Source of the DNA: a virus
Taxonomy: Duplodnaviria; Caudoviricetes
DNA length: 64,000 nucleotides
Virus record (IMG/VR): IMGVR_UViG_3300032227_000993
Direction: 5' to 3' (one strand)
In this document: positions 21,141 through 38,591 of the stretch, one piece after another
Layout: every line of letters starts with the position of its first letter
How positions within the stretch are numbered: the first letter of the stretch is position 1
Made by a program: the position numbers and the translations under genes
The notes under the pieces: generated by a model
Databases searched by the model: none
What the model saw: the letters and a program-made list of their open reading frames with translations, nothing else
Told to the model about the DNA's origin: nothing

Positions 21141-22241
21141 TTACTCCTTGAATAAGTTTACTTCTTCCCATGGCAATCCAGACTTGCCAAAATGCCCATA
21201 GTTAGTAGTGCCGCTGTAGATAGGCCGGAACAAGTCGAAGCGATTGATAATACCTTTGGGTGTTAAATCTACATTGGCCTCAATCCATTCGGTTAACGCA
21301 CGGCTATCGCCATCGGACTCTACATAAAAGCTCATGGGATCTGCTACACCAATGGCATAACTAATCTGTACAGTGGCCCATGTGGCTTTGCCTGCGGCCA
21401 CAATGTTCTTGGCAAGATAACGAGCCATGTAAGCAGCACTACGGTCTACCTTGGTAGGATCCTTGCCTGAGAACGCACCGCCACCGTGTGGACTGTAACC
21501 ACCGTAGGTGTCTACAATAATCTTACGTCCTGTTAGGCCTGTGTCGCCATCTGGTCCGCCAATAACAAAACGTCCTGTTGGGTTGATGTAAAACTCTGTG
21601 TTTTCGTCAACATACTCAGCCGGCAATACCTGGCGAATAATCATTTCCACAGTAGCGCGAACAAACTCAATACTGACATCTTCTGAATGTTGTGTAGAAC
21701 ATACTACTTTGGCAATACGCAAAGGTTTATTATTTTCATCGTATTCAAATGTAACTTGACTCTTGGCGTCTGGACCTAACCAATTGGTACTGCCACCTTT
21801 TCTAATTGTAGTAAGTGCTTCTACAATACGATGGCTGTAATAAATTGCCGACGGCATATAGTTTTCTGTTTCGTCACAGGCATAACCAAACATTAGTCCT
21901 TGGTCACCTGCTCCAAAGTTATCTGTACCTAATGCAATGTCTGCTGACTGCCCGTGTAGCAAATTAATAATCTTAACTGTACGCCAATCAAAGCCCGTTT
22001 GCTCGTAGCCAATATTTTTGATAACTTGACGAATAGTTGACTCTACTTTAGCAGGATCTAACTCTCCCTTGTACTCACCAGCAACCACAACTGTGTCTGT
22101 GGTTACCAATGTTTCGCAAGCACAACGAAGACTTGTATCTTGTTTGCTCATTACTAAATCTAAAACGGCATCGCTGATAGCGTCTGCTACTTTGTCTGGG
22201 TGTCCTTCTGATACTGATTCTGATGTGAATAGATAGCTCAA
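21141..22241 (-). CDS. metK: S-adenosylmethionine synthetase
   Basis: FTSESVSEGHPDK, GAGDQG, GLTGRKIIVDTYGG, GGAFSGKDPTKVDRSAAY. Confidence 0.97.
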   Translation of the reverse strand: MSYLFTSESVSEGHPDKVADAISDAVLDLVMSKQDTSLRCACETLVTTDTVVVAGEYKGELDPAKVESTIRQVIKNIGYEQTGFDWRTVKIINLLHGQSADIALGTDNFGAGDQGLMFGYACDETENYMPSAIYYSHRIVEALTTIRKGGSTNWLGPDAKSQVTFEYDENNKPLRIAKVVCSTQHSEDVSIEFVRATVEMIIRQVLPAEYVDENTEFYINPTGRFVIGGPDGDTGLTGRKIIVDTYGGYSPHGGGAFSGKDPTKVDRSAAYMARYLAKNIVAAGKATWATVQISYAIGVADPMSFYVESDGDSRALTEWIEANVDLTPKGIINRFDLFRPIYSGTTNYGHFGKSGLPWEEVNLFKE

Positions 22242-22242
22242 T

Positions 22243-22464
22243 TTAATTTCCTTTTAATTTCCATATGAGATGTTCGGTGGCGTCATGCCATTGATATTGA
22301 TACGCTGGTGTACCTGGCCCTGTCCACATAGCTGTTCCTTTGTAGGCATACTTCAACCAGATTACTTTATTACTTATCAAACATCTACGTGGCCACAATG
22401 AAAACTTGTATTCCCACCCTGCTTTGTAGTAAAAGCTACTGTTATCCATGCCTGGTATTGGCAT
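22243..22464 (-). CDS. small hypothetical protein
   Basis: TAATG overlap with queE stop gives start at 22464. Confidence 0.6.
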   Translation of the reverse strand: MPIPGMDNSSFYYKAGWEYKFSLWPRRCLISNKVIWLKYAYKGTAMWTGPGTPAYQYQWHDATEHLIWKLKGN

Positions 22465-23330
22465 TATTTGCCCCAGCCATTGCCCCATAAATCCACGTGT
22501 AATCGAGGACTGTAATTAAATCCACGTTCGCAACAAATGTTAGCGATGTTTAATTTGTTTTCTTCATAGGGTCGAACAACACCACCTTGTGGCATCAAGT
22601 AAACAACACCTTTGAATCCACCTGCTCTAAACGCATCAACTGCTCGAACAGCTTCGGCTACGTGTTCTACTGTTTCAACAACAAACTTGAGATACACATT
22701 ACCAAATGCTTGATATTCATTTACAACTTCTGGGCAGATGGCCTCTTCCCAAGATTCGCCTGACGCACTTAACTTAGCACTTACACTGAATGTGACTTCT
22801 CTTAAAAATCCAGGACCATCTAATGTCCAGTTACGCAAAAACGCTTTGAAGTCTTCACTTAACTTTTGTGTTCCATTGGTTTCAAAGGTAATGTTCTTTA
22901 AGTCTGCCATGCCTGGATGACTTAACAATTCTCCATAAGCACGTTGCCAACCTAACAAGGGTTCACCACCTGTAATAACCAAGTGTACGTCATTGCCATT
23001 GTTCTGTACCCATGCGTTATTAGGAGTTAGTGCCAACATTTGATCCACCAGGTCCGTTGTTTCCACAGTAGGACTCAAATGTTTAAATGCTGGGTGCCAT
23101 GACGCATAACTGTCACAGCCTGTTTCGACCAAAGGCAATGATAAGAATGTAGCATATTTGTCTACAACCTTGGCAACTTCATCAGCGCCTGTGCTCTTCT
23201 CACCTGGCTTGCAACCAAACCCACTACAGGTAAAGTTACAACCATAAGTGCGCAAAAATACACTGGGCACACCAACAAAGCGTCCTTCACCTTGCAAACT
23301 GTAAAACAGTTCACTTACTTTAATTTTCAT
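22464..23330 (-). CDS. queE: 7-carboxy-7-deazaguanine synthase (QueE-type radical SAM)
   Basis: ELFYSLQGEG, FLRTYGCNFTC...CDS, VITGGEP, ETNGT, SAKLS, SPRLHV. Confidence 0.9.
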   Translation of the reverse strand: MKIKVSELFYSLQGEGRFVGVPSVFLRTYGCNFTCSGFGCKPGEKSTGADEVAKVVDKYATFLSLPLVETGCDSYASWHPAFKHLSPTVETTDLVDQMLALTPNNAWVQNNGNDVHLVITGGEPLLGWQRAYGELLSHPGMADLKNITFETNGTQKLSEDFKAFLRNWTLDGPGFLREVTFSVSAKLSASGESWEEAICPEVVNEYQAFGNVYLKFVVETVEHVAEAVRAVDAFRAGGFKGVVYLMPQGGVVRPYEENKLNIANICCERGFNYSPRLHVDLWGNGWGK

Positions 23331-23821
23331 TTTTTCCACCACTCTTCAAAAGGAAAGTTAACCCAACGTGGGTCTTCAAGTTTGTTAATTTCTAATGCTG
23401 AATAATCTATGCGTTTAAATTCACTTGGTTCGTTGTTTATTAATACAGCAATGCGAACACTATTATTCCAGATAGTCGACCACGGCTCGCGTTTGCTTGG
23501 ATGAAAGTCTTCCCAATCTGCTTTGATCCAATTTAGAGTAGCACCGGAATCATTGATATCATCCACAATAAGAATGTTCTTACCGTTGTAGGCGTCTTCT
23601 GCCATCCAAAGATTATGCTCTTGTTCTCTACCATCACGTAGGCTTACTTTAAGACATTCCATAGGAACATCTAAATATTGGCTCATAAGAATAGCTGGCA
23701 GCAATCCTCCACGTGTAAGACCTACCACGTAATCGGGTCTCCAGCTATCTCGGTTCATCTGACGTAGAATTTCGTTGGTCAACGATTCTACATCTTGGTA
23801 AGTTAAGTTAGTATGGTCCAT
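23327..23821 (-). CDS. type I phosphoribosyltransferase (Gpt/XGPRT-like)
   Basis: VVGLTRGG, ILIVDDINDSGAT PRPP-binding motif; likely start MDHT at 23821. Confidence 0.88.
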   Translation of the reverse strand: MDHTNLTYQDVESLTNEILRQMNRDSWRPDYVVGLTRGGLLPAILMSQYLDVPMECLKVSLRDGREQEHNLWMAEDAYNGKNILIVDDINDSGATLNWIKADWEDFHPSKREPWSTIWNNSVRIAVLINNEPSEFKRIDYSALEINKLEDPRWVNFPFEEWWKK

Positions 23822-23827
23822 ACAAGT

Positions 23828-23856
23828 ATTATACACACTTGTATTTAGATTGTCAA
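23828..23856 (-). promoter_or_regulatory. sigma70 promoter TTGACA-17-TATAAT with TAAATA inside the spacer; leaderless geometry
   Basis: TTGACA 23856-23851, TATAAT 23833-23828, ATG 6 nt later. Confidence 0.8.
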
Positions 23857-23860
23857 GCGA

Positions 23861-24751
23861 TTATGATAAAATATTTCTGATACCTTGCTCAAAACTCATA
23901 GGCTCATAATCAGGCATGACAGACCGCAATTTGCTAATATCTGGTCGACGATTAGCTACCGATCCAGGCATACTCGGTAACTGTTCAAAAACAGCATCAG
24001 GATGACCTAATTCTGCGGCAATGACCTTGACCGCATCACCAATTGAAATTTCACGATCGTTACCAACATTGATTAATTCACGGTTGGTATTTTCAGCAAC
24101 ATAGATACTGGCACGGATAGCATCACTTACATGGCAGAAACTGCGTGTTTCTTGTGAGCCAATTACAGAGAAGATCCCATTACGAATCTTGTCAATTTGG
24201 TCGCCTAAGAAGTGGCCCTTCTTTGAATTCTCACCATACACGTTAAAGTAACGAATCATAACATAAGGCAAGTCTGAATTAGCCAGGTAGTTTTCACTGG
24301 TAATTTTGGCCAAACGATATGACCAACGAGCATTGTGAATATCTTTAATAAACACATCTGCGTTTTCTGGCACAGGTGTTGTAGGATCATCTGCTACAAT
24401 TTCACTGCTTGACGCATACACAATACGCTTTAAGTTTGTTTGTTTGCGAGCAAAGTTAAAAATGTTTAGGTCGCATACAAAGTTATTTTCCAGTACCTTG
24501 TTAGGCATTTTGTAAAAGTTTGTTGTGCCATTGATAGCGCCATAGTGATAAATGTAATCAAAATCAGTGGGCAGTTGATTAATGTCATCTACATTATTCA
24601 AGTCTATACGGAACCATTCATCGCAAGGAGGAATAGTAGTGCTACGACTGTGATTGTCTACTGCGTAAACTGTATGTCCAGCTTCTTTGAGCTGGCGACA
24701 AAACTCTGTGCCTAATAGGCCACTGGCACCTGTGATTAAAATTTTACTCAT
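23861..24751 (-). CDS. NAD-dependent NDP-sugar epimerase/dehydratase/decarboxylase
   Basis: GASGLLG, YASSSE, YRLAK (YxxxK), RYFNVYG. Confidence 0.9.
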   Translation of the reverse strand: MSKILITGASGLLGTEFCRQLKEAGHTVYAVDNHSRSTTIPPCDEWFRIDLNNVDDINQLPTDFDYIYHYGAINGTTNFYKMPNKVLENNFVCDLNIFNFARKQTNLKRIVYASSSEIVADDPTTPVPENADVFIKDIHNARWSYRLAKITSENYLANSDLPYVMIRYFNVYGENSKKGHFLGDQIDKIRNGIFSVIGSQETRSFCHVSDAIRASIYVAENTNRELINVGNDREISIGDAVKVIAAELGHPDAVFEQLPSMPGSVANRRPDISKLRSVMPDYEPMSFEQGIRNILS

Positions 24752-25521
24752 TTATTTAAACCTTTATTATCTTCTTGTACAGCATCAATCATTGTGTAAC
24801 TTAATCCTAATTTTTTAACCAAGTTAGCCCAGGCACTTGTGTCCTTAGGCAAACAATGTCCGCCAAAGCCACGCAAGTTTTCATTGCACATCAAGTATGC
24901 TGGATTAAAGCAATCACGTTTGATAATGGCATTGTAAACATTGTTGTAATCTACACCAAGAGCTTTGCATACATCATAGGCAATGTTGGAGAAGATAATT
25001 TGCACAGAGTGATTTACATTGTTAAAGTATTTTACAACTTCAGCTTCGGCAGGTTTAACACAAGCTACGTTCTGTGGCAAGTTACCGTGGATCTCTTTGA
25101 TGATGGCAAAATCTTCTTCACGGTCACTGCCAATAATGAGCAGGTCATGATTGTACATGAAATCAGCTAATGCTGTTTTAGCACGAAGGAATTCTGGAAC
25201 AGAACAAATACGCAATGTAGGATGTTCAGCACTAAGTCTGTCACTGGTACCCGGCACTACTGTACTCTTAACAGCTACTAAACCTTTGTAACCTGCCGCG
25301 TCCAATTCGCCAACAACCTTTTCAACAATACTTGTATCACAATCACCATTTGGTGCCTGGTTGGTTGGAACACAAAGGAATACACAATCGGTATCCAAAA
25401 CATCTTTTAATGTTGAACCTTCATATGCTGGATCAAAGAAACTCATTTGGTGTCCCAAATGATTTAGTCCTTCGTAAACTGCCTTACCTACTGTGCCTTT
25501 GCCTATTAAACCAATTTTCAT
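24748..25521 (-). CDS. UDP-glucose/GDP-mannose dehydrogenase family (no C-terminal domain)
   Basis: GKGTVG, KSTVVPG, PEFLR, GFGGHCLPKD catalytic motif. Confidence 0.85.
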   Translation of the reverse strand: MKIGLIGKGTVGKAVYEGLNHLGHQMSFFDPAYEGSTLKDVLDTDCVFLCVPTNQAPNGDCDTSIVEKVVGELDAAGYKGLVAVKSTVVPGTSDRLSAEHPTLRICSVPEFLRAKTALADFMYNHDLLIIGSDREEDFAIIKEIHGNLPQNVACVKPAEAEVVKYFNNVNHSVQIIFSNIAYDVCKALGVDYNNVYNAIIKRDCFNPAYLMCNENLRGFGGHCLPKDTSAWANLVKKLGLSYTMIDAVQEDNKGLNK

Positions 25522-26118
25522 TTAATTCTCCTCTGGGTACTTCATATCAACCAGTTGATTAGTCTGGGTTGATGCCATGCTTACGATTTCTAATGCCACA
25601 TCACTTGGCTCTAAACAAAAAGCCGCTGTTGACATATCTATCATTGGTGTGCGTGTTCTTACTGGGTTAATTAACCCTACAGTAACAGTACTGCCGTCAA
25701 AGTAGTCGCAGGCACCTTGCCATACATTATGTAGCGCACTTTTACTGGCCGCGTATAAAATGTAGGCCTTGCGCCCAGACTTGTAAGCACTTGATCCAAC
25801 CATGATTATTTTTACAGGTTTTTTGCTGGGATTATCAATGTAATGTTTAATAATAGACCAGTTTGATCCTACATTGATATCAAATGTTTTATTGTGTGTC
25901 TCGGTGTTTGTATTGTCAAAGTGTCCTACTGAATTTACAACAACATCTGGCAGATGACTGCTCAACAGATTATCAACAGATTCATAACTGTTACTGTCTG
26001 TAAAGTCAACAAGTCCGCTGTGGACAGGAACAACAACATAACCAGATCGCAAGAACTGTTCTGCGACCGCTTGCCCAATGCCTCCGTGGGCTCCAAAGAC
26101 AACTGCTTTTTTACTCAT
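25522..26118 (-). CDS. short-chain dehydrogenase/reductase
   Basis: GAHGGIG, YAASK. Confidence 0.85.
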   Translation of the reverse strand: MSKKAVVFGAHGGIGQAVAEQFLRSGYVVVPVHSGLVDFTDSNSYESVDNLLSSHLPDVVVNSVGHFDNTNTETHNKTFDINVGSNWSIIKHYIDNPSKKPVKIIMVGSSAYKSGRKAYILYAASKSALHNVWQGACDYFDGSTVTVGLINPVRTRTPMIDMSTAAFCLEPSDVALEIVSMASTQTNQLVDMKYPEEN

Positions 26119-26524
26119 CAGCGGGAATAATACTATCTACACGGAAAGTGTCTGATTCATACTCTTCGCCACCACGTGGTCCTTCAGCAAAGGCCATAAA
26201 CACACAACCTTGTGGACCAGCACGTAACGCATGAATTTCATTAGGCTCGCTGATGATAAAATCTCCACCTACTGCTTCGTACTTTTTGGCAGGGCCATCG
26301 CTGTCTACAGGTTTACTGTAATATTCTGTTGTACCTGCTACAATAAAAGTGTATTGTGTGGTTAATTTATGATAATGATTGGCACGAACAGCACCAGGCG
26401 CATTGCTTATCAAGCAACCTGAATTCATATTTGCTTTGGCAAATAAATCAGCAATAGTCCCACGTTCATCTTTGTGAACGCCTAAACCTGGTTCGGTATT
26501 GTTGTAAATGTTGTAATGTTTCAT
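26111..26524 (-). CDS. cupin (NDP-sugar 3,5-epimerase/isomerase-like)
   Basis: HKDERG, RANHYHK, EIHA. Confidence 0.75.
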   Translation of the reverse strand: MKHYNIYNNTEPGLGVHKDERGTIADLFAKANMNSGCLISNAPGAVRANHYHKLTTQYTFIVAGTTEYYSKPVDSDGPAKKYEAVGGDFIISEPNEIHALRAGPQGCVFMAFAEGPRGGEEYESDTFRVDSIIPADE

Positions 26525-27744
26525 TGTGAGATAAACTTTGTGTTAGGGTTAATTCTAAGTAACGCCTGTTTAAGTGGTTCACCAATGTTCCAACTTAATA
26601 CAAGTGCGTAAGGGTTTTCAAATTTGGCAAATTCATCATCGCCGCGAATAGGAATACGACTCAGCGGTGTGTACTTGCCTTGCTTAAACTCCGAAGAGTC
26701 AGTGATACAGTATAGATGTGTTTTGTTGAGTCCGTGCCAGTTGAGCCAAGTATTAGCTTTGGCAGCAGCACCTACACCAATGATAACAGCATTGGGTTCG
26801 TTGGTAACAATATCATAAAATTTCTTTAGCCACTCGTTGCGTTGTTCTATCAGCTGTAACTGTAGTTCATCGTAGAACGCAGGGTCAAATAGTCCTTGTG
26901 CTGTTTCCTGGGCAATGGAGTCTGCTACTTGATTAGCCAGCACATCGCTGTGGTGTGCTACTACTCGTAAACTTTGACCGTGGTAGTTGACCAACTCATA
27001 GCTGGCAATAGATAATCCAGCCTGGGCCAATACATTCTGTGCCATTTTGATAGTAAAGTATGTAGGATGTTCGTGATATGTCATATCGGGAAACTTACCA
27101 TTGGTGACCATCCAGCCCCAATAAGGAACTTCAAATACAAACACACCGTCTGGGGCCAACAAGTCAGCTACGGCTCGGGCAAAGCCTACAGGATCGTTAG
27201 CATGATTAAAAACATTGTTGGCCATGATAACTCGAGCAGGACCGTTAGCAATTTCTATAGCGGCGCCAACATCTGTACCAAACAATGCGTTGATAGTTTC
27301 TACGCCACGTGCTCTGGATATCGCGCACATATCGGCGCTGGTATCTACTCCAATAGCTTTGGTACCTGGTTGATTAAAGTGATTAATGAGATATCCATCA
27401 TTACTACCAATTTCTACCACCAGGCCTTGTGTCATGTACTTTGACTTGATGCTGTTGGCATATTCGTCCCAGTGATCGCGACTTGTTTTAGAATTACTTG
27501 ATGTGTAGGAGTAACTGTACAAGTTGTAGCGATCTTCGGCGTTGCTACTGTAACCAAGTTGTACAGAACCAGACTTGGGATTTAAATAAACTTGTAAGGG
27601 AAATACCGGTTCTGACAAGTTAACTTGATGTTCGGCAATAAACGTGTCAGCATAAGCGTGTTGACCAAAGTCAAGAATCTTAGTTACTGGTTCGCCTGTA
27701 ATTAAGCATTTGTCAACAAGGGTACTTTCCGTAATCTTGCTCAT
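26521..27744 (-). CDS. NDP-hexose C-methyltransferase family (class I SAM)
   Basis: VEIGSNDG, ANNVFNH, YHEHPTYF, GVGAAAKANT, GKYTP; TcaB9/EryBIII-like architecture. Confidence 0.85.
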   Translation of the reverse strand: MSKITESTLVDKCLITGEPVTKILDFGQHAYADTFIAEHQVNLSEPVFPLQVYLNPKSGSVQLGYSSNAEDRYNLYSYSYTSSNSKTSRDHWDEYANSIKSKYMTQGLVVEIGSNDGYLINHFNQPGTKAIGVDTSADMCAISRARGVETINALFGTDVGAAIEIANGPARVIMANNVFNHANDPVGFARAVADLLAPDGVFVFEVPYWGWMVTNGKFPDMTYHEHPTYFTIKMAQNVLAQAGLSIASYELVNYHGQSLRVVAHHSDVLANQVADSIAQETAQGLFDPAFYDELQLQLIEQRNEWLKKFYDIVTNEPNAVIIGVGAAAKANTWLNWHGLNKTHLYCITDSSEFKQGKYTPLSRIPIRGDDEFAKFENPYALVLSWNIGEPLKQALLRINPNTKFISQ

Positions 27745-28556
27745 TTACTGTGTACCATGAACTTGTTAACATCATTGGCTCGCATTTTAACCCAAGGGTC
27801 CTGCTTGCCAGCAATAACATTTTCCCACCATGTGGTATCTCTACCGGTGGCTTTTAAATGTTTAGCGATGTAGGTAGCATCGATAATTCGATTGTTACTA
27901 AACACCTGGTTATGAAAATCTAATGGATGACTTGGATTGCCTTCGTAGGTGACTTTTTTCTTTTGAGTAGTGTCATCATTATTGCCAGTTAAATCAGCAC
28001 GATCGTGCGTGACATAGATTTCTACAATTTCAATTAAATCAAGCAAGTAAGCAATTTGACTTAATTCAGCATCGACCATTTGGTGTCTGGATAAGAACTT
28101 GAATAGATCATACCATTCTTTTGGATAGATTGGAAAGATACTGTAAGGATGTTCGCCGTGTGTATGAACTTTTAATAATTTAAATTCGCCATCGTGATCG
28201 GTGATAATTTTATCCCAGCCAGTGGTTTCCATAACAGCATCGTCGTTCCAGACAAATAACCAATCAGCTGATGCTTGTACTCCAAGTCCGTTGTAATATT
28301 GATTGAGTCCTTGGTAGCCCAACGGTTCAAATAACATCACGGTGTAGGCAACACCTTTTTGCTCCAGCCACGGTTGTACGTCGGTACTGAAGTATCTTAA
28401 CCCAGTTTCATCATCGTTATCAAACCCTAATATGAGTTGAACCGCGTCTGTATTAAGTGTACGATTAAACAAACTAACCACACTAAGTTTTAGTGCTGTA
28501 GTCCGACCTCGTGTTGGTAAGAGTACTGCTATTTTAAATTCGTTAGCTGATGACAT
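27741..28556 (-). CDS. GT-A (family 2-like) glycosyltransferase
   Basis: LLPTRGR, FDNDD, WNDDAVM. Confidence 0.7.
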   Translation of the reverse strand: MSSANEFKIAVLLPTRGRTTALKLSVVSLFNRTLNTDAVQLILGFDNDDETGLRYFSTDVQPWLEQKGVAYTVMLFEPLGYQGLNQYYNGLGVQASADWLFVWNDDAVMETTGWDKIITDHDGEFKLLKVHTHGEHPYSIFPIYPKEWYDLFKFLSRHQMVDAELSQIAYLLDLIEIVEIYVTHDRADLTGNNDDTTQKKKVTYEGNPSHPLDFHNQVFSNNRIIDATYIAKHLKATGRDTTWWENVIAGKQDPWVKMRANDVNKFMVHSK

Positions 28557-28682: not shown

Positions 28683-29186
28683 TTATTCAAATAACTCTTC
28701 GTTCCATTCACGGTGTCCTTCACGGAATGCCATGTTGCTTTGAGTTTCACGTACTTCTACACGATAGCACCATAAACGATCAGATTCAGACTGTCCCCAC
28801 ATATCAGGAATATACACGCCGTTGACATACTTGTACAGTTGATCTGCTAAGCCTTCACAACCTAATTTAGGTAGGATGGTAAGTTTGGCAAGATTCTTTG
28901 CTTGTAATAACTTGTATGTTTCGAGTTCAGGATCATCTTCGGCAACAAGTAAAGTGTGATCAAATTGACTTTCTAATACACCTTTGAGTTCTTTTAGTCC
29001 ACCATAGTCAGCGGCCCAGTTACGCACATCTAAATCATCTGTGCCAAAGTAAAACTTCATACTAAACGAATATCCGTGAATTAAGTTACAATGTGAGTCG
29101 GCTCGCCATTGTCGATAAGCGCAAGGAAATGCGTCGTGATACTCTTTTGTACTTGTGTATTTGTATTGCCTGGATTGATTTGCCAT
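28683..29186 (-). CDS. queD: 6-carboxy-5,6,7,8-tetrahydropterin synthase
   Basis: CNLIHGY, DYGGLKELK...FDHTLL, GCEGLA, EVRET. Confidence 0.9.
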   Translation of the reverse strand: MANQSRQYKYTSTKEYHDAFPCAYRQWRADSHCNLIHGYSFSMKFYFGTDDLDVRNWAADYGGLKELKGVLESQFDHTLLVAEDDPELETYKLLQAKNLAKLTILPKLGCEGLADQLYKYVNGVYIPDMWGQSESDRLWCYRVEVRETQSNMAFREGHREWNEELFE

Positions 29187-29204: not shown

Positions 29205-29271
29205 ATTATAGCACAGATGGCAGAGTTTGTAAAGCGGGAATGACATCAAAAGGCCGCTGTAATACTATTTA
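29205..29271 (-). promoter_or_regulatory. queD control region: late TAAATA, hairpin, sigma70 TTTACA-17-TATAAT
   Basis: TAAATA 29271-29266; AGCGG/CCGCT stem 29258-29233; -35 29233-29228; extended -10 29210-29205. Confidence 0.7.
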
Positions 29272-29652: not shown

Positions 29653-29796
29653 TCATTCCGTTCTTGCTCGATGTTTGGCCATGGCTTCTGCGCTACGCTG
29701 TTGAAAGTCTACCATGCTGTGATAGCCCATTTGATAGCACGGGCAATGCTTGCCTAAGATCCAGCGGGCTAATCGAATCCTTAGTTTCTGTATCAT
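29653..29796 (-). CDS. small hypothetical protein (47 aa)
   Basis: MIQKLRIRLARWILGKHCPCYQMG...; overlaps upstream stop. Confidence 0.45.
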   Translation of the reverse strand: MIQKLRIRLARWILGKHCPCYQMGYHSMVDFQQRSAEAMAKHRARTE

Positions 29797-30218: not shown

Positions 30219-30877
30219 TTTTTAGAGGCCAATACGATTTTACAAATGTGTTCTAGCCGTTCTATATGTTCGTATGCTCGCCATGGGCTTGTGTCAATGG
30301 CAACAACTCCGTGTCCTTTGATACCTACGACGTCATAGGCAATATTGCCCTCATCGTCTAGGCCCAGATTGCGATGGCAAGCGTCGCCCAACTCTTGACT
30401 AGTAGGCGGAACATCCGGAACATTGGGTGCTACTCTAGTGTATCTACTCAGTTCAGGAAAGTCGTCAACTATGGTGCTGAGATCAATGCCGGCATGCATG
30501 GCCGCCACAATGTAGGTAGGATGAAGATGTACTACCACTCGAACTTCGTCCTTGTGCTGTCCCATCTGTTTTTGTAGACCAAAGTGTAGAGGCATTTCTC
30601 CCGACGGTTTTAGATTACTGCTAATTTCGGTGTACTGATCCTCTTTCCACCCCCAGCGATCTGCCAATAGACCTGTGCCAGGTTCGTTCCAAGTTAGTGG
30701 GGCTTTGATGATAATTTTCTTAAACTGATCTGGTTGTAGAGTTTGTTTACGTACACCGCTTGGGGTAATGTAAAAATGGTCACGGTCGTGATGACGAATA
30801 CTAACATTACCATCTCTACTGGTAATCCAATTGCGCTTGTACGCATCTAACATTACTTCACATATTGTTTCTAACAT
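30215..30877 (-). CDS. class II aldolase/adducin family (FucA/MtnB-like)
   Basis: DGNVSIR, ITPSG, KPSGEMPLH, VVHLHP, GHGVVA. Confidence 0.88.
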   Translation of the reverse strand: MLETICEVMLDAYKRNWITSRDGNVSIRHHDRDHFYITPSGVRKQTLQPDQFKKIIIKAPLTWNEPGTGLLADRWGWKEDQYTEISSNLKPSGEMPLHFGLQKQMGQHKDEVRVVVHLHPTYIVAAMHAGIDLSTIVDDFPELSRYTRVAPNVPDVPPTSQELGDACHRNLGLDDEGNIAYDVVGIKGHGVVAIDTSPWRAYEHIERLEHICKIVLASKK

Positions 30878-31050
30878 TATTTTTCACCTTGTATTAGTTG
30901 GCCAGTTACAGCGTTGACTCGCAGTCCTGCTTCGTTGATGTAATAGGGCTGGCACATCTTTTCGCCGTCCCACTTTTGACCACACCAACACTCGCCCTCT
31001 GCGCTGATAATACAAGTGCCTGAACCACAGCATCTAGGATCTACATTCAT
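30877..31050 (-). CDS. Cys-rich small protein (57 aa)
   Basis: MNVDPRCCGSGTCIISAEGECWCGQKWDGEKMCQP...; ATGA overlap with folE stop. Confidence 0.6.
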   Translation of the reverse strand: MNVDPRCCGSGTCIISAEGECWCGQKWDGEKMCQPYYINEAGLRVNAVTGQLIQGEK

Positions 31051-31808
31051 CGTGGCGCAAAGTCCTGTTGTAGTTTGATATTATCCATAAACTCTTTCTT
31101 GGTACCTGAGTCTGTGTTAAACGCACCTTTAAGTACTGTGGTCTGTGTTAAACTACTGTGTGCCATAATACCACGATTCTCACAACAACCATGTGTGGCT
31201 TGAATGTAAACGCCCACATCCTTACTACCTGTGGCTTTCATTATTTCTTTGGCAATATCGTTACACAATTCTTCTTGAAGAGTTCCTCTCCTCGCACACC
31301 ATTGTGCAATACGAGTGTATTTTGACAAGCCAATGAGCTTTTCTGCGGCAATGATACCAATGTAGGCAACACCCGAGACAGGCTGATGGTGATGACTACA
31401 CATACTACGCAATTCACTGCGTACAACCAACATTCCTTCATATCTATCCTCGCTATCGTTAGGAAAAGCTGTGCAATCTGGAGCAGGTTCATAGCGACCA
31501 GCCATAATTTCATTGTAATACATCTTAGCCAGGCGTCGAGCTGTGCCGTAACTGTTGGGATCATAAGCACGATCAATAAGCAAGGCATCCAATACTTTTT
31601 CAAATGCCTGTGTAGCTTCATTGATAAGTTGTTTCTTATCTTCATCGCTGACATATTCGCTAATGTTATCACCAGCCCAGAAACGTTTTTTGTTGGCAAT
31701 CATACGCTCACGAATAACTACACTTAACGGACGTCCATGATCTGGGTTTATCACAGCATCTTCGTAGCCGGGGTGGAATGGGGCTTCCTGTACAAGTTTA
31801 TCACTCAT
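31047..31808 (-). CDS. folE: GTP cyclohydrolase I
   Basis: TARRLAKMY, SMCSHHHQP, IGLSKYTR, QEEL, HGCCENRG. Confidence 0.95.
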   Translation of the reverse strand: MSDKLVQEAPFHPGYEDAVINPDHGRPLSVVIRERMIANKKRFWAGDNISEYVSDEDKKQLINEATQAFEKVLDALLIDRAYDPNSYGTARRLAKMYYNEIMAGRYEPAPDCTAFPNDSEDRYEGMLVVRSELRSMCSHHHQPVSGVAYIGIIAAEKLIGLSKYTRIAQWCARRGTLQEELCNDIAKEIMKATGSKDVGVYIQATHGCCENRGIMAHSSLTQTTVLKGAFNTDSGTKKEFMDNIKLQQDFAPR

Positions 31809-32205: not shown

Positions 32206-32234
32206 ATTGTATATGATATTTAGGTTGTTGTCAA
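32206..32234 (-). promoter_or_regulatory. sigma70 promoter TTGACA-17-TACAAT with TAAATA inside spacer; leaderless geometry
   Basis: TTGACA 32234-32229, TACAAT 32211-32206, ATG 32199. Confidence 0.75.
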
Positions 32235-32294
32235 CAGTTTAGAAATAAAAAGTGGGCATATAGCCCACTTGGTGTTTGTTCAAAACAAATGATA

Positions 32295-32619: not shown

Positions 32620-33201
32620 TTAGCTTATGATCTCAATATTCCTACAGTCAGGATAGTTTACCTGCTGATTTTGCGGCGCGATAGTAGGCAGCAATTTAGA
32701 ACCTAATGCACATAGTTCCAAGGTTGGCGAATAGTGAAATCCCAATCCAAATTCTACCTGTTTATCCCACGGACTAATACGCAGATCTCGTCCATCGCTA
32801 CGCCACTTAGACATGATATCATACGCTTCCGCATCATCTAACAATATGGCCCCAACTCTGCCCAAGTGCAAGGGTTTTGACCAGCCAAAACTCAAACACT
32901 GCATTTGATCTGGTCTATACATACCGGGTTCTAATCTACGAGCACTATCCCAAATGCGTGTGCCGTGGAACTGATATTCACCGACCCATTGTTCTGACGT
33001 TAAAATATAATTAATCCTTAGATGATGCATTATCATAGGCACAGATAGATATGTAAATGCGCTGAATGCTGTTTGTTGTACACGGTCATAGCGCATACAC
33101 AGTTCGATAGCGTGGGTACAGCTATCAGTCAAGATCACATGGGGAGCACCTGTGTAATCTGCCAAGTCTTGTTCAAATTTAAATAATGCGTCAAAGCTCA
33201 T
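32620..33201 (-). CDS. DegT/DnrJ/EryC1/StrS-like PLP aminotransferase (short form)
   Basis: TDSCTHA, WDSA, LSFGWSKPLHLGRVGAIL. Confidence 0.75.
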   Translation of the reverse strand: MSFDALFKFEQDLADYTGAPHVILTDSCTHAIELCMRYDRVQQTAFSAFTYLSVPMIMHHLRINYILTSEQWVGEYQFHGTRIWDSARRLEPGMYRPDQMQCLSFGWSKPLHLGRVGAILLDDAEAYDIMSKWRSDGRDLRISPWDKQVEFGLGFHYSPTLELCALGSKLLPTIAPQNQQVNYPDCRNIEIIS

Positions 33202-34151
33202 TTAGTGTACCATTTCCAAGCATGAGTAATCATATCTTCTAAATTGTATTTAGGCGCCCATCCAGTGACTTGAACAAACTTACCGGGGTCAGCTGTCAGC
33301 ATGGCTGGGTCACCTTCGCGTTTTCCGCCTACACTTAGGTTAACACGTTGGCCTGTGACTTTTTCAGCCAACCTGACAATTTCTAAATTACTGGCACCGG
33401 TCTTGGTTCCTAAATTGTAAACGCCGCTGGTCACAGCAACATCGATAGCACGAGCGTGAGCATCTGCTATGTCATCAACATGAATGTAGTCTCGAACACA
33501 AGTGCCATCTTCTGTTTCGTAGTCGTTGCCGTAGATTAAAAAGTCTGAGTTATCACGGATACTTTCTAGCACACGAGCAATGATATGTGTAGCGTTGGGT
33601 TCTTGTCCGTGTCGCACTTGTGGATCAGCACTACAGGCGTTGAAGAAACGAAACGCCACATACTCTATGCCGTAGGCTCGATGATACGCTGCCAATGCCC
33701 ACTCAATAAACAGTTTACTTTGTCCGTACGGACTGATAGGTTCTGCTGGGTCAATTTCTTGGCAAGGAACCATGATAGGGTTGCCATAGGTAGAAGCTGA
33801 CGAACTAAAAATAATTTTAGGTTTCCAAAAAAACTTATCTTTGATTTTATCAAGCAAGCGAACAGTTTTTAATACATTGTTATTGTAGTACAACTGTGGA
33901 TCAGTCACAGATGGACCAACCAGCGAAGTTCCAGCGCAATGAATAATGGCATCAGGCTTGCCCTCCATCATTAGCTTGTCAAATGCTTCGCTGTCAAAAT
34001 CACATTGTTCAAACCAATCAAACTTGCCTTCCAAGTGAGCAGGCAACGGACGTGTATCTACTCCAATGACCTGACGCCCTTGATCTTTTAGTTTGACAGC
34101 AACTTGGCCGCCAATGTAACCACTAATACCTGTGACAATAATGATACTCAT
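33198..34151 (-). CDS. galE: UDP-glucose 4-epimerase
   Basis: GISGYIG, FSSSASTYG, YGQSK, FRFFNA, DGTCVRDYIHV. Confidence 0.9.
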   Translation of the reverse strand: MSIIIVTGISGYIGGQVAVKLKDQGRQVIGVDTRPLPAHLEGKFDWFEQCDFDSEAFDKLMMEGKPDAIIHCAGTSLVGPSVTDPQLYYNNNVLKTVRLLDKIKDKFFWKPKIIFSSSASTYGNPIMVPCQEIDPAEPISPYGQSKLFIEWALAAYHRAYGIEYVAFRFFNACSADPQVRHGQEPNATHIIARVLESIRDNSDFLIYGNDYETEDGTCVRDYIHVDDIADAHARAIDVAVTSGVYNLGTKTGASNLEIVRLAEKVTGQRVNLSVGGKREGDPAMLTADPGKFVQVTGWAPKYNLEDMITHAWKWYTK

Positions 34152-35329
34152 TAATATTTGGCCTTTACTACATGATCACGATAACGATTACCAGCGCGAT
34201 TCCATTGTTCGCCACGACCCTCCAAGATATCTATTACACGATCAATGGTGCTGTTGTTCCAGTCACTGATTAGGCCCATGTTCTTATGTGGTTCTGCTAA
34301 AAGATTGTTTAACTTGGCGCTGGCGTCTTCTAATGACCAAGGAATGTAAAGACGTTCAGGGTCATTAGCAAAAGTTTCAGGGAAACTACGATAAGCAGGA
34401 TATAACACGTTACAACCAAGAGTATCGGCTTCAGATACTGTGTTAGATACCCAATCCTGTAAAGCACAATTAAAAAGCACACGGCTATCGTTGACCAAAG
34501 AATAATATTCATTTTTATTTAAGTTTTCGTGGATTTGCAATGCGCCTTCGTCACTCATCTTACGAGCACGTTTTACATATTCTGGATTGTTACTACGCAA
34601 TGGTCCACCTGAGAAAATAGCAAAGCTAACATCCTTATAGGCCTTTTGGTATTCTTCAGCCAGGTCCATAAAGAATCCAGGCTGTTTCTCTTGATCAAAC
34701 CTTGCGGCAAATGCCACACGCTTTTGTCTTTGATCAAATGGCCTGATGTTTGTAATACCACCAATACGTTCCAACACTTCCTCTTTGCCAAATGCCAGTC
34801 CACTGATATTGTAGATTGGAGCAGTCCAACCAGCGATACGCATATGAGCTACCATTTCTTCGTTGGTAGCAAGCACACCAGTTACAAACTCATTAACCAT
34901 CTTTTCATACGTTGCCATCCAACCAGCCATACCCCATACATGAACAAAATCGTCAGGATCGATGGCCTGAGCAAGACAACGTACAAAAATACGGGGACGC
35001 AAATTAGCAGGGACTTGATCAAGAATGTAAGGTAAGCTCTCGATACCGGGCTGAAACATATCTTCAAAGTAGATAACATCTTCATCAGTGACTTCTCCAT
35101 TGCGCATCATTTGTACCAGGTTCATCATTTGGCTCATACCGAAGTAACTGCGACCATGTGCGTCTAGCACTTGCCCTACTGAAATAGTTTGTGTGTTATC
35201 GATAGTAGAACCCGGAACATAAACTACTTCTAATCCACGACGATCAAACACACGTCGATTCCATTCAGTGAGTTGTAGAGTGTAGCGAGCCTCATATGAT
35301 TCAAGGCCCATGTAAAATAGTTTACGCAT
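34151..35329 (-). CDS. GT-B fold glycosyltransferase
   Basis: Likely start MRKLFYMGLE; FAARFDQEKQP, ENLNKNEYY, WVSNTVSEADTLGC acceptor/donor-domain pattern. Confidence 0.7.
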   Translation of the reverse strand: MRKLFYMGLESYEARYTLQLTEWNRRVFDRRGLEVVYVPGSTIDNTQTISVGQVLDAHGRSYFGMSQMMNLVQMMRNGEVTDEDVIYFEDMFQPGIESLPYILDQVPANLRPRIFVRCLAQAIDPDDFVHVWGMAGWMATYEKMVNEFVTGVLATNEEMVAHMRIAGWTAPIYNISGLAFGKEEVLERIGGITNIRPFDQRQKRVAFAARFDQEKQPGFFMDLAEEYQKAYKDVSFAIFSGGPLRSNNPEYVKRARKMSDEGALQIHENLNKNEYYSLVNDSRVLFNCALQDWVSNTVSEADTLGCNVLYPAYRSFPETFANDPERLYIPWSLEDASAKLNNLLAEPHKNMGLISDWNNSTIDRVIDILEGRGEQWNRAGNRYRDHVVKAKY

Positions 35330-35552
35330 GGCGACGATATCCGGAGAATCTGCGGGCATCTTCTTCCCACATATTCTTTACGTTTTTGCCTTGTACAAAC
35401 TTGTTGTACTGTTGCCAAGCGTATGCTTTAAAGTTGTAAAGATCATTCTCGTTGTAGCGATATCCGTGTTCTACACAAAATTCTAAGAACTTTGCAAGGT
35501 CATCATGAACAGCTAACGCACGAGGGCTTGGTTTGTAATGGACTTTACCCAT
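35322..35552 (-). CDS. hypothetical protein
   Basis: Likely start MGKVHYK at 35552 with AAAGGAA RBS. Confidence 0.6.
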   Translation of the reverse strand: MGKVHYKPSPRALAVHDDLAKFLEFCVEHGYRYNENDLYNFKAYAWQQYNKFVQGKNVKNMWEEDARRFSGYRRHA

Positions 35553-35562
35553 TTTATTTCCT

Positions 35563-36033
35563 TTAATATTTAATACTAAGATTAGGGCGAGAAAGTTCAT
35601 ACTTAATGAGGCAACCGTTCTCACCATCTTCGGCCACATCAATCCACACAGCTCGCTCAGGATATCTGGCGGCTATCTGATCATACAAGTCATCTGCTAT
35701 CATTTCGCAGGACTTAAAATCTAATTCTAAAACGGAATTCGAATCACTTCTGTGACTGGTATAGAGATTCTCGAGCCAGCGTTTGAACTGGATGAATTCG
35801 ATATCTCTGTCATTGTGGAAGACATCGATCCACACCCGGAAGTGGAAAATATGGCGATGAGGATTAGCAAGGAACGATACATCATATTCATCTCCTGTGG
35901 CCAAGTTTGGGTCTGTAGCGGCCGCAGGGTATTTATGTATACCTTCTCGGCGGAATGTAACCCAAATCTTACGTTCTGCGTTTTCTTTAATACGTTGTGC
36001 TTGTTCTACCAATGCTTGTTTTCGTTGTTCCAT
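35563..36033 (-). CDS. QueD-like T-fold protein, DpdL-type (candidate CDG decarboxylase)
   Basis: FLANPHRHIFHF fits LxxxHRHxF (DpdL signature as recalled), SCEMIA, EDGENG; TAATG coupling gives start 36033. Confidence 0.65.
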   Translation of the reverse strand: MEQRKQALVEQAQRIKENAERKIWVTFRREGIHKYPAAATDPNLATGDEYDVSFLANPHRHIFHFRVWIDVFHNDRDIEFIQFKRWLENLYTSHRSDSNSVLELDFKSCEMIADDLYDQIAARYPERAVWIDVAEDGENGCLIKYELSRPNLSIKY

Positions 36034-36326
36034 TATTGTTTCCAAAGTTCCATTGCTACGATTTTACCAATTGTTTCTGCTACATCTTCACCGTCGGCAA
36101 TAATATGTGTAGAGTTAGCATGGCAATCATTTACGTGATCATATTTACGAAGTTGTACAATAGTACCGCCCTGTGCTGGCATAACATTGAATGTTAGTCC
36201 TTCAATATCAACCGTTGGTCTTTTTATTGATGCAACAGAAATAGTGTCAAAATCATTACGTTCTACACTTACATAACCGGCACCAAGCCAATTAAAAATG
36301 TTAAGGCGCCACTGCCTTGGTATCAT
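36033..36326 (-). CDS. hypothetical protein
   Basis: 97-aa ORF coupled on both sides. Confidence 0.6.
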   Translation of the reverse strand: MIPRQWRLNIFNWLGAGYVSVERNDFDTISVASIKRPTVDIEGLTFNVMPAQGGTIVQLRKYDHVNDCHANSTHIIADGEDVAETIGKIVAMELWKQ

Positions 36327-36841
36327 TTGATTACCTCGTCTTTGGTGTATTTAGACCAGTCGGTGAATACCTCACGCTTTTGTAAATCATGTAGGCTGTG
36401 GCACCATACGCCCGGGTTTGTTGCGGCAAAATCTCTATCATCAATTTTAAGAGTGGCATTGTATCCAAATTGTCGAATGTAGGGAAGTTTAACACTAATC
36501 ATTGGAATAAAGTTATCAAACTCTACCAATGAAGATTCAAGCAGGCCTTCTGCTTGTGCTACATCTAAATCAAGTGTGCAGTAGTTTGGAATTTTTTCTA
36601 AACAGGCCTTGACCATCCACTCCCACTCACACCAACCATCACCGTCGTTAATGTCCAATGCTGGAAAACTTTGATTGGCACCAAAATAAATGTGTTCACA
36701 GTTGTTGTTGGCAAATTCTTGCAAAATAATTTGTGGATCTTGTACACCTACAACAAACAATGTACGCAGGCCAAATGCCGCTGTGTGTTCAACTTCAGTA
36801 CCAATAAAAAACGATACGTCAGTGTGTCCATCTCTATTCAT
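36323..36841 (-). CDS. conserved hypothetical protein in dpdA neighbourhood
   Basis: FIGTEVEHT..G..TLF, HIYFGAN, LKIDD, GVW; function unassigned. Confidence 0.6.
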   Translation of the reverse strand: MNRDGHTDVSFFIGTEVEHTAAFGLRTLFVVGVQDPQIILQEFANNNCEHIYFGANQSFPALDINDGDGWCEWEWMVKACLEKIPNYCTLDLDVAQAEGLLESSLVEFDNFIPMISVKLPYIRQFGYNATLKIDDRDFAATNPGVWCHSLHDLQKREVFTDWSKYTKDEVIK

Positions 36842-37038
36842 TTTTTTTCCGTTTTGTAAACAGGTTCGTTGTATTCTTGTATAAGTGTAACAAGTTCTGT
36901 CTTAACTCGCAACCTTTGCTTCTTCAAATCAGTTATTTCGACATCGTCAAATACTCCAGTACTTTCCAAACCGTCAATCTTTTTATCTAAACGGTGATGT
37001 TCTTCTTCTAAATGTTTAATACGATTTTTTACAGACAT
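36838..37038 (-). CDS. DUF465/YdcH-like coiled-coil protein
   Basis: LEEEHHRLDKKI...LKKQRLRVKTEL. Confidence 0.7.
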   Translation of the reverse strand: MSVKNRIKHLEEEHHRLDKKIDGLESTGVFDDVEITDLKKQRLRVKTELVTLIQEYNEPVYKTEKK

Positions 37039-37040
37039 TT

Positions 37041-38591
37041 TTACGCCTCCAGTTGGTCAAGTTTATTTGGGTCAAGTTCTACATCGTCGCCGTCTACACC
37101 ATCTTCGACTTCTTCTACATCAAACAAGGTATTGAACATGGCACGAGCATTAACAGTCTTTTTACCTTTAAAGCCACGTGTACCGATGATGTCCATCCAA
37201 TAACGATTGTAGTGTTCAATAATAGCTTCTGCTTCCGCGCGATCCGGTGTGGCAAAGATCGCATTTACAATATCTTTAAACTTGGCATGATCGCCGTTTT
37301 GATTCCACATCATAGCAGGCCAAGTACCAGCGTCGTATTCGCGATTGGCACGTTGTACTGCTTCCAAGTGCATCCACACATTATGGCCCATAAGCAACGC
37401 ATAACTAAACGAATCCCAACTGGTCTTGCCTTCCTTACCGATCTTATTTAGGTCACCTGGCTTGTAGATACAGATATCTTTCATCTTTAGGTGTCGACTA
37501 ATCGGCGACTCATCAAAGTGTCCAATTAGGCCATCTGCGATAACAGCCGGACCAAACTGTCGCGGGTCAGTGGAGTATTTTTTATCATCCACAATAGGAC
37601 TCATACGATAGCACCACTTTTCGTTGTGTGGTAAATCAATGTGATGATACACCTGTCCGTTAGCTGTGGCCAAGAATGGACTAGCACAATCAAAGCTGAT
37701 GGTAAAAGCAGGGTTAACATACTTACGAACAGCACGTTGGACGTCTGTTAATAACACAGCCCACTCTAACTTACTTGTGCCCAAGAAGTGCATCCAATCG
37801 TGTACACCCTCCTGTAACAAGTTATCATAACGTAGTGCCACTAAGCGTTTAAGAACCAAGTGTATGTCGCACATATTCTGACCACCCATACTCCAGCCAT
37901 TAAAGTGTGTATCCGGATACTTGACAGGATCACAATAGTCCTTCATCAAGTCATACCACCGATCGGCTTCTGCGTGATTACTGCCTTGTAACACGTTTAA
38001 GAACTTGGCGCCACCATTCTTGACACCCTTGCGATTGGCCATGAAGTAATCATTGTTGTACTTGGTAGCGTCAACGGCTTCTTGGTATGTGGTGATAGCA
38101 CAAGCTGCGCTGGCCTTTTTATCATGTATGACCCAGGTTGGAATATCAAGAATCATGCCGTAGTCGGCCACTCCGTCCATCCACTTGAGCACAGCATCAC
38201 GTTTCTTCTGCGCCTTGGGACAACCGCTACCAGCTTTCCAGTCACCTTCCCACAAGCCCTTGGCAATCTGAAATCCACCCGAGTCGCCCAAGATAAAAGA
38301 ACCAGGATCACGATTGCGAACCATGTCTTCAGACCAGTCCTGCTTGTTAAGGTCCAAGTTGGCATGACCGCCCGAGTACAGGCTCCACCGGTAAGGAAAC
38401 AGGCCCTTCTGAGGATCAAGCCAATTCATCATTTCCATGTCCTGTATGCCTGCAGGCAAGCGAGCAGGATCTACATAAGGACCATTCACAGGATCACGTT
38501 GTTTACCAATAAAGGTAGCATAGAATCCGCTAATAGCTGGAAGGAATACAGCGTAGTCTTTTTGTTTTGCTGTTAAGTTATCTTGAGTCAT
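37041..38591 (-). CDS. dpdA: DNA 7-deazaguanine transglycosylase (TGT fold, DpdA2-like)
   Basis: GDSGGFQ, MILDIP, LNVLQG, WSMGG, HFLGTS, SFDCASP TGT-family motifs; no tRNA-TGT zinc motif seen. Confidence 0.8.
   Translation of the reverse strand: MTQDNLTAKQKDYAVFLPAISGFYATFIGKQRDPVNGPYVDPARLPAGIQDMEMMNWLDPQKGLFPYRWSLYSGGHANLDLNKQDWSEDMVRNRDPGSFILGDSGGFQIAKGLWEGDWKAGSGCPKAQKKRDAVLKWMDGVADYGMILDIPTWVIHDKKASAACAITTYQEAVDATKYNNDYFMANRKGVKNGGAKFLNVLQGSNHAEADRWYDLMKDYCDPVKYPDTHFNGWSMGGQNMCDIHLVLKRLVALRYDNLLQEGVHDWMHFLGTSKLEWAVLLTDVQRAVRKYVNPAFTISFDCASPFLATANGQVYHHIDLPHNEKWCYRMSPIVDDKKYSTDPRQFGPAVIADGLIGHFDESPISRHLKMKDICIYKPGDLNKIGKEGKTSWDSFSYALLMGHNVWMHLEAVQRANREYDAGTWPAMMWNQNGDHAKFKDIVNAIFATPDRAEAEAIIEHYNRYWMDIIGTRGFKGKKTVNARAMFNTLFDVEEVEDGVDGDDVELDPNKLDQLEA

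Follow-up and report, generated by a model that had tools for sequence, protein, structure and literature searches.

The 64,000-nucleotide stretch analyzed here (the window) belongs to a virus of the Caudoviricetes (IMG/VR record IMGVR_UViG_3300032227_000993). At positions 21141-38591 it carries about 26 open reading frames (ORFs), all on the minus strand, in which genes for the synthesis of a 7-deazaguanine and its insertion into DNA are interleaved with sugar genes and glycosyltransferases (GTs). Junctions between the ORFs mostly overlap by 1-25 nt or abut, in line with the translational coupling claimed in an earlier reading of the letters and translations (the sequence-only reading), and nearly every gene named there was borne out by family searches. 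The part that did not stand was a "DegT-like aminotransferase", which is a 193-aa mini form. Genes absent from the earlier list are a purine phosphoribosyltransferase (PRT), a HIT-family protein, an EndoIII-like protein, a class II aldolase and MetK. The module sits in a replication block, between PolB/clamp and a 5'-3' exonuclease, and not amid structural genes. The region can be classed as a deazaguanine system of the DpdL type to which a glycosyltransferase is dedicated, in a jumbo phage.

More than 600 viral contigs encode the DpdA of this module at 73-98% identity, the largest being 320 kb long and 93% complete; megablast of the 17.4-kb region against phage genomes gave no near-identical match. 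Relatives were compared by searching 80 related viral contigs with every window protein (tblastn), and 82 loci were fetched. The order dpdA-(DUF465)-o172-(o97)-dpdL-o106-GT-B-GalE-miniDegT-FolE-(HhH)-HIT-QueD-GT-A is kept in dozens of these contigs, and PRT-QueE come next wherever a contig extends far enough. From dpdA to the mini-DegT gene the ORFs form one packed run, upstream of the sole strong terminator-like hairpin (32270-32250, minus strand; an 8-bp GC-rich stem plus T-run). The hairpin is followed by a near-consensus promoter (TTGACA-17-TACAAT; 32234-32206, minus strand). Consensus promoters also precede QueD and the PRT-QueE pair, the latter with a 12/12 match (23856-23828). All of these elements are matches to consensus patterns only, and the hairpin and promoter at 32206-32270 probably mark the end of a dpdA-to-DegT transcription unit.

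The enzymes of base synthesis could be assigned by homology. FolE, GTP cyclohydrolase I (31047-31808), matches PF01227 (5.5e-39) and NF006824 (1.9e-39, below cut-off). The QueE-like radical S-adenosylmethionine (SAM) enzyme, a predicted 7-carboxy-7-deazaguanine (CDG) synthase (22464-23342), matches phrog_2076 (2.9e-52); NCBIfam QueE models cover only its N-terminal part, with scores below their cut-offs. The QueD-like 6-carboxytetrahydropterin synthase (PTPS family; 28683-29186) matches PF01242 (5.5e-14) and phrog_2389 (4.2e-35). In place of the canonical CxxxHGH motif it carries CNLIHGY, in which one zinc-ligand histidine is replaced by tyrosine, and its homology stands at the family level. 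The same CxxxHGY variant occurs in 12 of 12 QueD-like proteins of DpdL phages examined, including those of phiST, ACP17, BUCT-ZZ01 and RHph_I1_18. This survey covered DpdL phages only, namely the window and our loci L008, L017, L019, L046, L050, L052, L059, L083, L084, L086 and L089.

A second protein of the QueD/T-fold type (35563-36033; phrog_17812, 1.6e-33) contains LANPHRHIF, which fits the LxxxHRHxF motif that, instead of CxxxHGH, defines the DpdL family of proposed CDG decarboxylases (PMC10516641). Homologues are present in Phosso (68% identity), PA5oct (55%), ACP17 (53%) and phiST (34%; gp040, E 4e-7), and the genomic context is that of a DpdL, with DpdA, FolE, QueD and QueE present and QueC not found. 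Because the QueD-like protein has CxxxHGY while DpdL lacks the cysteine, the two T-fold paralogues may act together, or QueD may yield a different product. Neither QueC nor QueF was found among the approximately 60 window ORFs scanned against Pfam (most ORFs of at least 190 aa), in agreement with the sequence-only reading, and the sole PP-loop ORF of the window (3-731) has no QueC match. An apparent QueC in relatives (19 bits) is NAD synthase; the sole PF06508 signal in the 93%-complete relative is NadE. With QueC and QueF absent, the pathway would therefore stop before preQ0. The base to be expected from a QueC-less, DpdL-type module is therefore dCDG- or dDG-like (deoxy-CDG or deoxy-7-deazaguanosine), as had been proposed.

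The candidate for the insertion step is a 516-aa DpdA-like DNA-guanine transglycosylase (37041-38591). tRNA-guanine transglycosylases (TGTs) are defined by an Asp loop, DSGG[FYL]Q, together with LD-x-P, QG, H/Y-x-LG and FDC/SxD. The corresponding GDSGGFQ, LDIP, VLQG, HFLG and SFDCASP of the window protein are conserved in its homologues from PA5oct, Vibrio phage 2.275.O and Phosso. When the 516-aa family was aligned by hhalign with DpdA3-type proteins (those of X1, annotated as a queuine tRNA-ribosyltransferase, BUCT-ZZ01 and BCSR5, and the ACP17 DpdA used by Cui et al.), a match of 95.9% probability was obtained (E 6e-9, 193 columns). Language-model (Atlas) features point the same way (TGT 0.94, DpdA 0.89). 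No match was found in Pfam, PHROG or NCBIfam, and searches of PDB sequences by phmmer and with two profiles were all empty. The AlphaFold2 (AF2) model is poor (pLDDT 47) and forms a TIM barrel with matches that include QTRT2, ArcTGT and DpdA; their VIA-align Z scores on this model (9.3, 9.1 and, for DpdA 7ui4, 8.3) come with the longest alignments and are not separated from those of other TIM barrels. As for context, the homologue in Vibrio phage 2.275.O adjoins QueF, QueC and FolE, and that of PA5oct lies between the polymerase and QueE. On its motifs and profile similarity we accept the 516-aa protein as a long DpdA form.

Packed between dpdL and galE is a gene for a GT of the GT-B fold (34151-35359; likely start Met11, at 35329), referred to below as GT-B. 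A Foldseek search of the PDB with its AF2 model gave 472 matches at E <= 0.001 (best E 8e-9, TM 0.45-0.53). The top 50 all have the GT-B fold and are mostly GT4-type glycosyltransferases, with LmbT, SenB, TarM, BshA and PimA (E ~1e-8) as the top structural neighbours. A broad profile of the family matches GT group 1 chains (E 8e-5) and PglH (2.5e-4), and the R..EKQP loop of the group 1 signature is present, with R220, E224, K225 and P227 invariant. The E-x7-E motif is found in the Phosso and PA5oct proteins and takes the form D-x7-E in the window. Pfam gave weak matches only (~1e-3, below cut-off). With 65-84% identity across the clade, the protein is among the better-conserved ones of the run. 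As far as sequence and fold can say, GT-B is thus a bona fide GT4-type enzyme. A predicted complex of GT-B with DpdL scored 0.00, which counts neither for nor against binding.

An exhaustive profile search (E <= 1e-3) showed that the GT-B family comprises 941 protein clusters, and in every context sampled a dpdL gene was found within ~3.7 kb. The distance was at most 2.4 kb in all 51 viral loci carrying GT-B. For cultured phages, tblastn showed that the GT-B genes of BUCT-ZZ01 (68% identity) and ACP17 adjoin dpdL, and that those of X1, BUDD and BCSR5 lie within ~3.7 kb of it. In PA5oct, EST35_0317 is a GT-B placed exactly between dpdA and dpdL (hhalign 97.5%, E 6e-12), and the "glycosyltransferase" beside dpdL in Phosso matches the GT-B profile (hhalign 96.4%). 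Three of three distant representatives sampled have a T-fold gene with an HRH motif or a weak PTPS match one or two genes away; the one from a PolA-type phage is accompanied there by FolE, a pair of PTPS genes and a QueE-like gene as well. GT-B is likewise near dpdL in four of four contigs binned into bacterial genome assemblies. Altogether, six cultured lineages carry GT-B, and a minimal cluster, that of ACP17, reads QueD-FolE-o172-DpdA-GT-B-DpdL-QueE with no other sugar gene. No GT-B was found in Vibrio phage 2.275.O, which has QueC/QueF and no dpdL. The sequence-only reading had suggested following GT-B and dpdA across phages as a check: because its family adjoins dpdL in every sampled context, across unrelated lineages, GT-B is not a chance neighbour of the deazaguanine module.

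In BUCT-ZZ01 (L083), a 447-aa protein encoded between FolE and DpdA (9010-10353) weakly matched the GT-B profile over its C-terminal half (E ~1e-4) and may be a second, diverged GT-B of this minimal cluster. Both this protein and phiST gp042 are without DSGG.

A second partner of the module that, by sequence comparison, crosses lineages is o172, a conserved 172-aa protein (36323-36841) present in 77 of the 82 fetched loci. PA5oct-like phages carry homologues (48-49% identity), that of PA5oct itself being EST35_0364, around which all genes encode hypothetical proteins; another homologue lies between FolE and DpdA in ACP17. The protein is not universal, being unrelated to the small proteins encoded at the equivalent places in BUCT-ZZ01, X1 and Phosso. 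No Pfam, PHROG or PDB sequence match was found for o172; Atlas features point to a GT-A-like protein, which is a lead only.

Among the closest characterized systems is the DpdA3/DpdL system of Cellulophaga phage phiST and its relatives (Cui et al. 2023, PMC10516641). Like the window, phiST has FolE, a CxxxHGY QueD-like protein, QueE, an LxxxHRHxF DpdL and a distant TGT-like DpdA, has no QueC, and carries these genes beside its DNA polymerase genes. Unlike the window, it has no GT-B, o172, GalE or other sugar genes, and a kinase-like ATPase and MazG are found instead; its DpdA also differs from that of the window, which is of the longer form (516-610 aa) common to PA5oct, Phosso and Vibrio phage 2.275.O. 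Another is that of Wroclawvirus PA5oct, which shares DpdA (36% identity), DpdL, o172 (48%), GT-B and QueE in the order PolB-clamp-like-DpdA-GT-B-DpdL...QueE-RNaseH but has no GalE, mini-DegT, GT-A or sugar cassette near the cluster. The module is a member of the DpdL/DpdA3-type systems, to which the dedicated GT-B, along with o172, forms a previously undescribed addition. A full-text literature search turned up no description of a DNA deazaguanine bearing a sugar, which is not proof of unpublished status, and no mention of DpdL outside Cui et al.

A precedent for phage DNA glycosylation is provided by enzymes that act on pyrimidines, such as the T4 alpha- and beta-glucosyltransferases on 5-hydroxymethylcytosine and the RB69 and DLP3 arabinosyltransferases on 5-hydroxycytosine (PMC13326640). 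These also have the GT-B fold and are encoded beside base-synthesis genes; the phages concerned bring their own enzymes for sugar nucleotides and use several GTs to build chains of more than one sugar. The experimentally confirmed arabinosyltransferases (PMC13326640) have in common with GT-B the structural neighbours BshA, sucrose-phosphate synthase and LmbT. On the other hand, the pyrimidine enzymes act on the hydroxyl of a base made at the nucleotide level, whereas the window GT-B is partnered with a purine analogue that transglycosylation would place in the DNA; apart from the fold, the two groups of enzymes show no relationship in sequence.

The remaining sugar genes of the region fall into a constant and a variable part. 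GalE, UDP-glucose 4-epimerase (33198-34151), scores 299.3 bits against the equivalog model TIGR01179 (cut-off 262.3) and follows GT-B in 43 related loci. The mini-DegT protein (32620-33201) is kept in 38 loci. It matches PF01041 at 1.7e-10 through residues 8-42, corresponding to profile positions 28-62 of 360, so it is not a full-length (~360 aa) fold-type I pyridoxal phosphate enzyme of the DegT/DnrJ/EryC1 family; no NCBIfam match was found, and a possible lysine motif, SFGWSKP, was noticed by eye. A GT2-family GT-A (27741-28556; Atlas features 0.99, structure TM 0.90, phrog_14945 weak) follows QueD in nine loci. The variable cassette (23861-27744, minus strand) begins with an NDP-hexose C-methyltransferase of the TylC3 type (26521-27744), in which a Zn-ribbon (PF08421, 8.8e-8), a SAM methyltransferase domain (PF13489, 1.2e-14) and a C-terminal domain (PF08484, 3.6e-25) follow one another in that order. 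Next come a weakly matching cupin (26111-26524), a short-chain dehydrogenase/reductase (SDR; 25522-26118, family match), a short nucleotide-sugar dehydrogenase of 257 aa in which only the N-terminal and central Pfam domains match (24748-25521), and an extended-SDR epimerase/dehydratase/decarboxylase with weak UXS/ArnA-like matches (23861-24751).

These genes suggest a pathway to a glycosylated 7-deazaguanine. By homology, FolE, the QueD-like protein and QueE would convert GTP to CDG, DpdL would convert CDG to 7-deazaguanine in the role proposed for its family, and the long TGT-like DpdA would exchange guanine in DNA for the deazaguanine base. The PRT could recycle the guanine released by this exchange or activate the deazapurine, and MetK could supply SAM for the radical SAM and methyl steps. 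GT-B would move a hexose from a UDP-sugar onto the deazaguanine-derived base, with GalE supplying or balancing UDP-Gal/Glc for it; this step would most likely take place at C7, in the major groove, after insertion of the base into DNA. GT-A, o172 and the strain-variable cassette (here for a C-methyl-branched sugar) may lengthen the glycan, and the odds that they act on DNA rather than on another glycan are about even.

A glycosylated deazaguanine in DNA is, in our judgement, the best reading of the region, although it falls a little short of an even bet. The wider proposition is that the GT-B phages (this clade, PA5oct, Phosso, ACP17, X1, BCSR5, BUCT-ZZ01 and hundreds of uncultured ones) all carry a glycosylated 7-deazaguanine, that strain-variable sugars extend the glycan here, and that DpdL creates the acceptor instead of merely decarboxylating CDG; we consider this conceivable, with the balance leaning somewhat against it. 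In support of a glycosylated base, PA5oct DNA withstands restriction enzymes whose sites contain G and is a target of sensors of hypermodified bases; its modified G was left chemically unassigned in that END nuclease study (PMC12191111). Furthermore, when the DpdL and DpdA of ACP17 were expressed in E. coli with the intervening GT-B left out, no dDG was formed (PMC10516641). The missing GT-B offers a reason for this failure.

Several points weigh against a sugar on the DNA base. 7-Deazaguanine is without a hydroxyl and offers no obvious O-acceptor. The site of attachment is a guess among C7 (as a C-glycoside), a retained carboxyl, a hydroxymethyl and N2, and a hydroxymethyl acceptor is conceivable if DpdL does something other than decarboxylate. 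The DNA of phiST, which lacks GT-B, carries plain dDG (PMC10516641). With a positive control run, GT-B was found neither locally nor genome-wide in the dpdL phages phiST, RHph_I1_18, Bakedbeans and Ahp1 and is therefore not needed for base synthesis or insertion there. T4 alpha-glucosyltransferase appears only at rank 23 among the Foldseek matches of GT-B, the neighbours LmbT, SenB and BshA act on small molecules, and the model itself is mediocre (pLDDT 63). The behavior of the sugar genes, described below, adds to these points.

Since the best structural neighbours glycosylate small molecules, a role for GT-B at the precursor level fits. The enzyme could act before the DNA stage, on the free deazapurine, its nucleotide or a pterin-stage intermediate, making a transient or protective glycoside or carrying out a step that DpdL needs, so that the base in virion DNA would be unglycosylated (dDG or dCDG). 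Nucleotide-level chemistry is hinted at by the PRT gene, which overlaps QueE here and in BUCT-ZZ01, by the HIT nucleotide hydrolase/transferase conserved between FolE and QueD, and by the kinase-like ATPase and MazG of phiST at the corresponding positions; the failure of DpdL and DpdA alone to give dDG in E. coli can be read in the same way (PMC10516641). However, phiST and the three further DpdL lineages manage without GT-B, which is thus not a required biosynthetic step, and GalE and further GTs in the same run suit the building of a glycan better than a transient glycoside. The structural argument is also blunted by the fact that known phage DNA glycosyltransferases have the same small-molecule neighbours (PMC13326640). 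We therefore regard precursor glycosylation as unlikely, though as a serious contender.

The distribution of the sugar genes raises a different possibility, that they, and possibly GT-B with them, serve to decorate proteins of the virion or a glycan of the host envelope, with a tolerated insertion site in an early/replication region accounting for their position. Homologues of the C-methyltransferase, cupin and SDR were found only in L059 among the 80 related viral contigs that extend to this part, and none was found in five large relatives. In the 93%-complete relative (L095, G001:C1:279000-297400) a different sugar cassette lies between GT-A and PRT-QueE (ORFs 9596-16602), with a 4,6-dehydratase, two Methyltransf_24 proteins, a full-length DegT, a split transketolase, an FkbM methyltransferase and an epimerase. 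Judging from such pathways, the split transketolase may add a two-carbon branch. Because one cassette recurs in a single locus and another takes its place in L095, the "branched sugar" genes are a strain-level accessory at a fixed site within the module, and the slot between GT-A and PRT-QueE looks like cassette exchange at O-antigen loci. The nearest cultured-phage match of the window GT-A (GT-A271) is a glycosyltransferase of pelagiphage HTVC008M, outside the deazaguanine pathway. Mini-DegT homologues lie in the large glycan clusters of Flavobacterium phage immuto_2-6A and cyanophage S-SCSM2R. There, as in the window, they stand beside GT2/GT4 enzymes, epimerases and methyltransferases, but with no deazaguanine genes nearby or interleaved and no DpdL-linked GT-B. 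By liquid chromatography-mass spectrometry, immuto_2-6A DNA contained only dA, dC, dT and fdPreQ1 and thus no glycosylated base (PMC10516641).

These findings undercut two details of the sequence-only reading. The C-methylated sugar that it thought could be added to the base depends on a gene set with homologues in one of 80 related contigs, and the DegT-like aminotransferase of its list is a mini protein whose homologues belong to GT clusters of other phages. With the cassette unconserved, the mini-DegT homologues in such clusters and no glycosylated base in immuto_2-6A, the exotic sugars may serve another glycan. As an account of the sugar genes, with or without GT-B, virion or envelope decoration is nevertheless rather improbable: it cannot explain GT-B beside dpdL in every sampled lineage, including the minimal ACP17 cluster, and against it also stands the tight packing of GT-B, GalE and mini-DegT with dpdA and dpdL in a single run that precedes the sole strong terminator-like site.

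Cyanobacteria make biopterin glucoside, and FolE, the PTPS-like proteins and GT-B might likewise make a pteridine glycoside beside an ordinary deazaguanine pathway. Such a synthesis does require GTP cyclohydrolase I, two proteins of the PTPS family and a GT-B, the host of BUCT-ZZ01 is Synechococcus elongatus PCC 7942, and the structural neighbours of phage GT4-like enzymes include a UDP-glucose:tetrahydrobiopterin glucosyltransferase (PMC13326640). This reading is nevertheless very improbable, as QueE and DpdA always accompany the FolE/PTPS/GT-B trio, minimal clusters such as that of ACP17 have no sepiapterin-reductase-type gene, the tetrahydrobiopterin enzyme is not among the top 50 Foldseek matches of GT-B, and dDG is present in the DNA of phiST, which encodes the same pair of T-fold proteins (PMC10516641).

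To our knowledge, the sugar-bearing bases described in DNA are all pyrimidines (glucosyl-hydroxymethylcytosine, arabinosyl-hydroxycytosine and base J), and the 7-deazaguanine bases all carry small groups at C7. If a glycosylated deazaguanine in DNA is indeed made by these phages, it would be the first case of a genomic purine analogue that bears a sugar. It would join the glycosylation and deazaguanine strategies and present a new class of target for modification-dependent defences and their inhibitors. The GT-B family could then serve as a marker predicting which DpdL phages differ from the plain dDG of phiST, and its cultured carriers, including the therapy-relevant PA5oct, would give test organisms.

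Several accessory genes accompany the module. The PRT, of the xanthine/guanine type (23327-23836), matches PF00156 (2.5e-16) and NF006613 (1.7e-11, below cut-off), and the PRT-QueE pair is also present in BUCT-ZZ01, L008 and PA5oct. The HIT protein (29265-29645; PF01230, 8.2e-10; phrog_19494, 1.5e-14) lies between FolE and QueD in 13 loci. MetK, S-adenosylmethionine synthetase (21141-22241), scores 479.7 bits against TIGR01034 (cut-off 309.4) and was not found at this position in related loci; in L095, NadE is encoded where the window has MetK. A class II aldolase/adducin-family protein (30215-30877; PF00596, 1.9e-28) has no homologue in the 82 fetched loci.

A small HhH-GPD/EndoIII-like protein of 141 aa (29793-30218; PF00730, 3.1e-5, below cut-off) is present in five related loci. 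Homologues annotated as ENDO3c or endonuclease III are found in Xp12-like Xanthomonas/Stenotrophomonas phages and in cyanophage S-TIM54; the DNA of Xp12 is fully 5-methylcytosine. Because host END nucleases sense hypermodified bases via an inactive EndoIII domain (PMC12191111), the phage protein could be a decoy or inhibitor; it could also be a proofreading glycosylase.

Outside the module, the window encodes PolB, a clamp-like protein, the 5'-3' exonuclease, ClpB and DnaJ; its radical SAM genes number at least eight. Host-like genes are those for a TctC-family periplasmic receptor, Gcw_chp (a bacterial protein family), a full-length ClpB-type disaggregase, DnaJ and an FMN reductase (at 725-1621, 14001-14738, 58666-60945, 61016-61840 and 46468-47109, as a set). 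The TctC gene may hint at a betaproteobacterial host. Two large multidomain proteins of nucleotide metabolism are also encoded: one of 531 aa (50369-51964) starts with a dCMP/cytidine deaminase zinc domain, and one of 632 aa (53327-55225) gave weak nucleotidyltransferase and SprT-like matches.

Radical SAM genes are dense in the window, with seven besides QueE (2958-4097, 5506-6510, 8228-10360, 12884-13975 on the plus strand, 16247-17479, 38588-39664 and 45303-46553). The radical SAM/SPASM gene at 38588-39664 (minus strand; PF04055, 6.9e-12) lies directly upstream of dpdA and is kept there in only 10 related loci. A SPASM domain was detected in five of the seven, and in those at 16247-17479, 38588-39664 and 45303-46553 it lies N-terminal to the radical SAM core.

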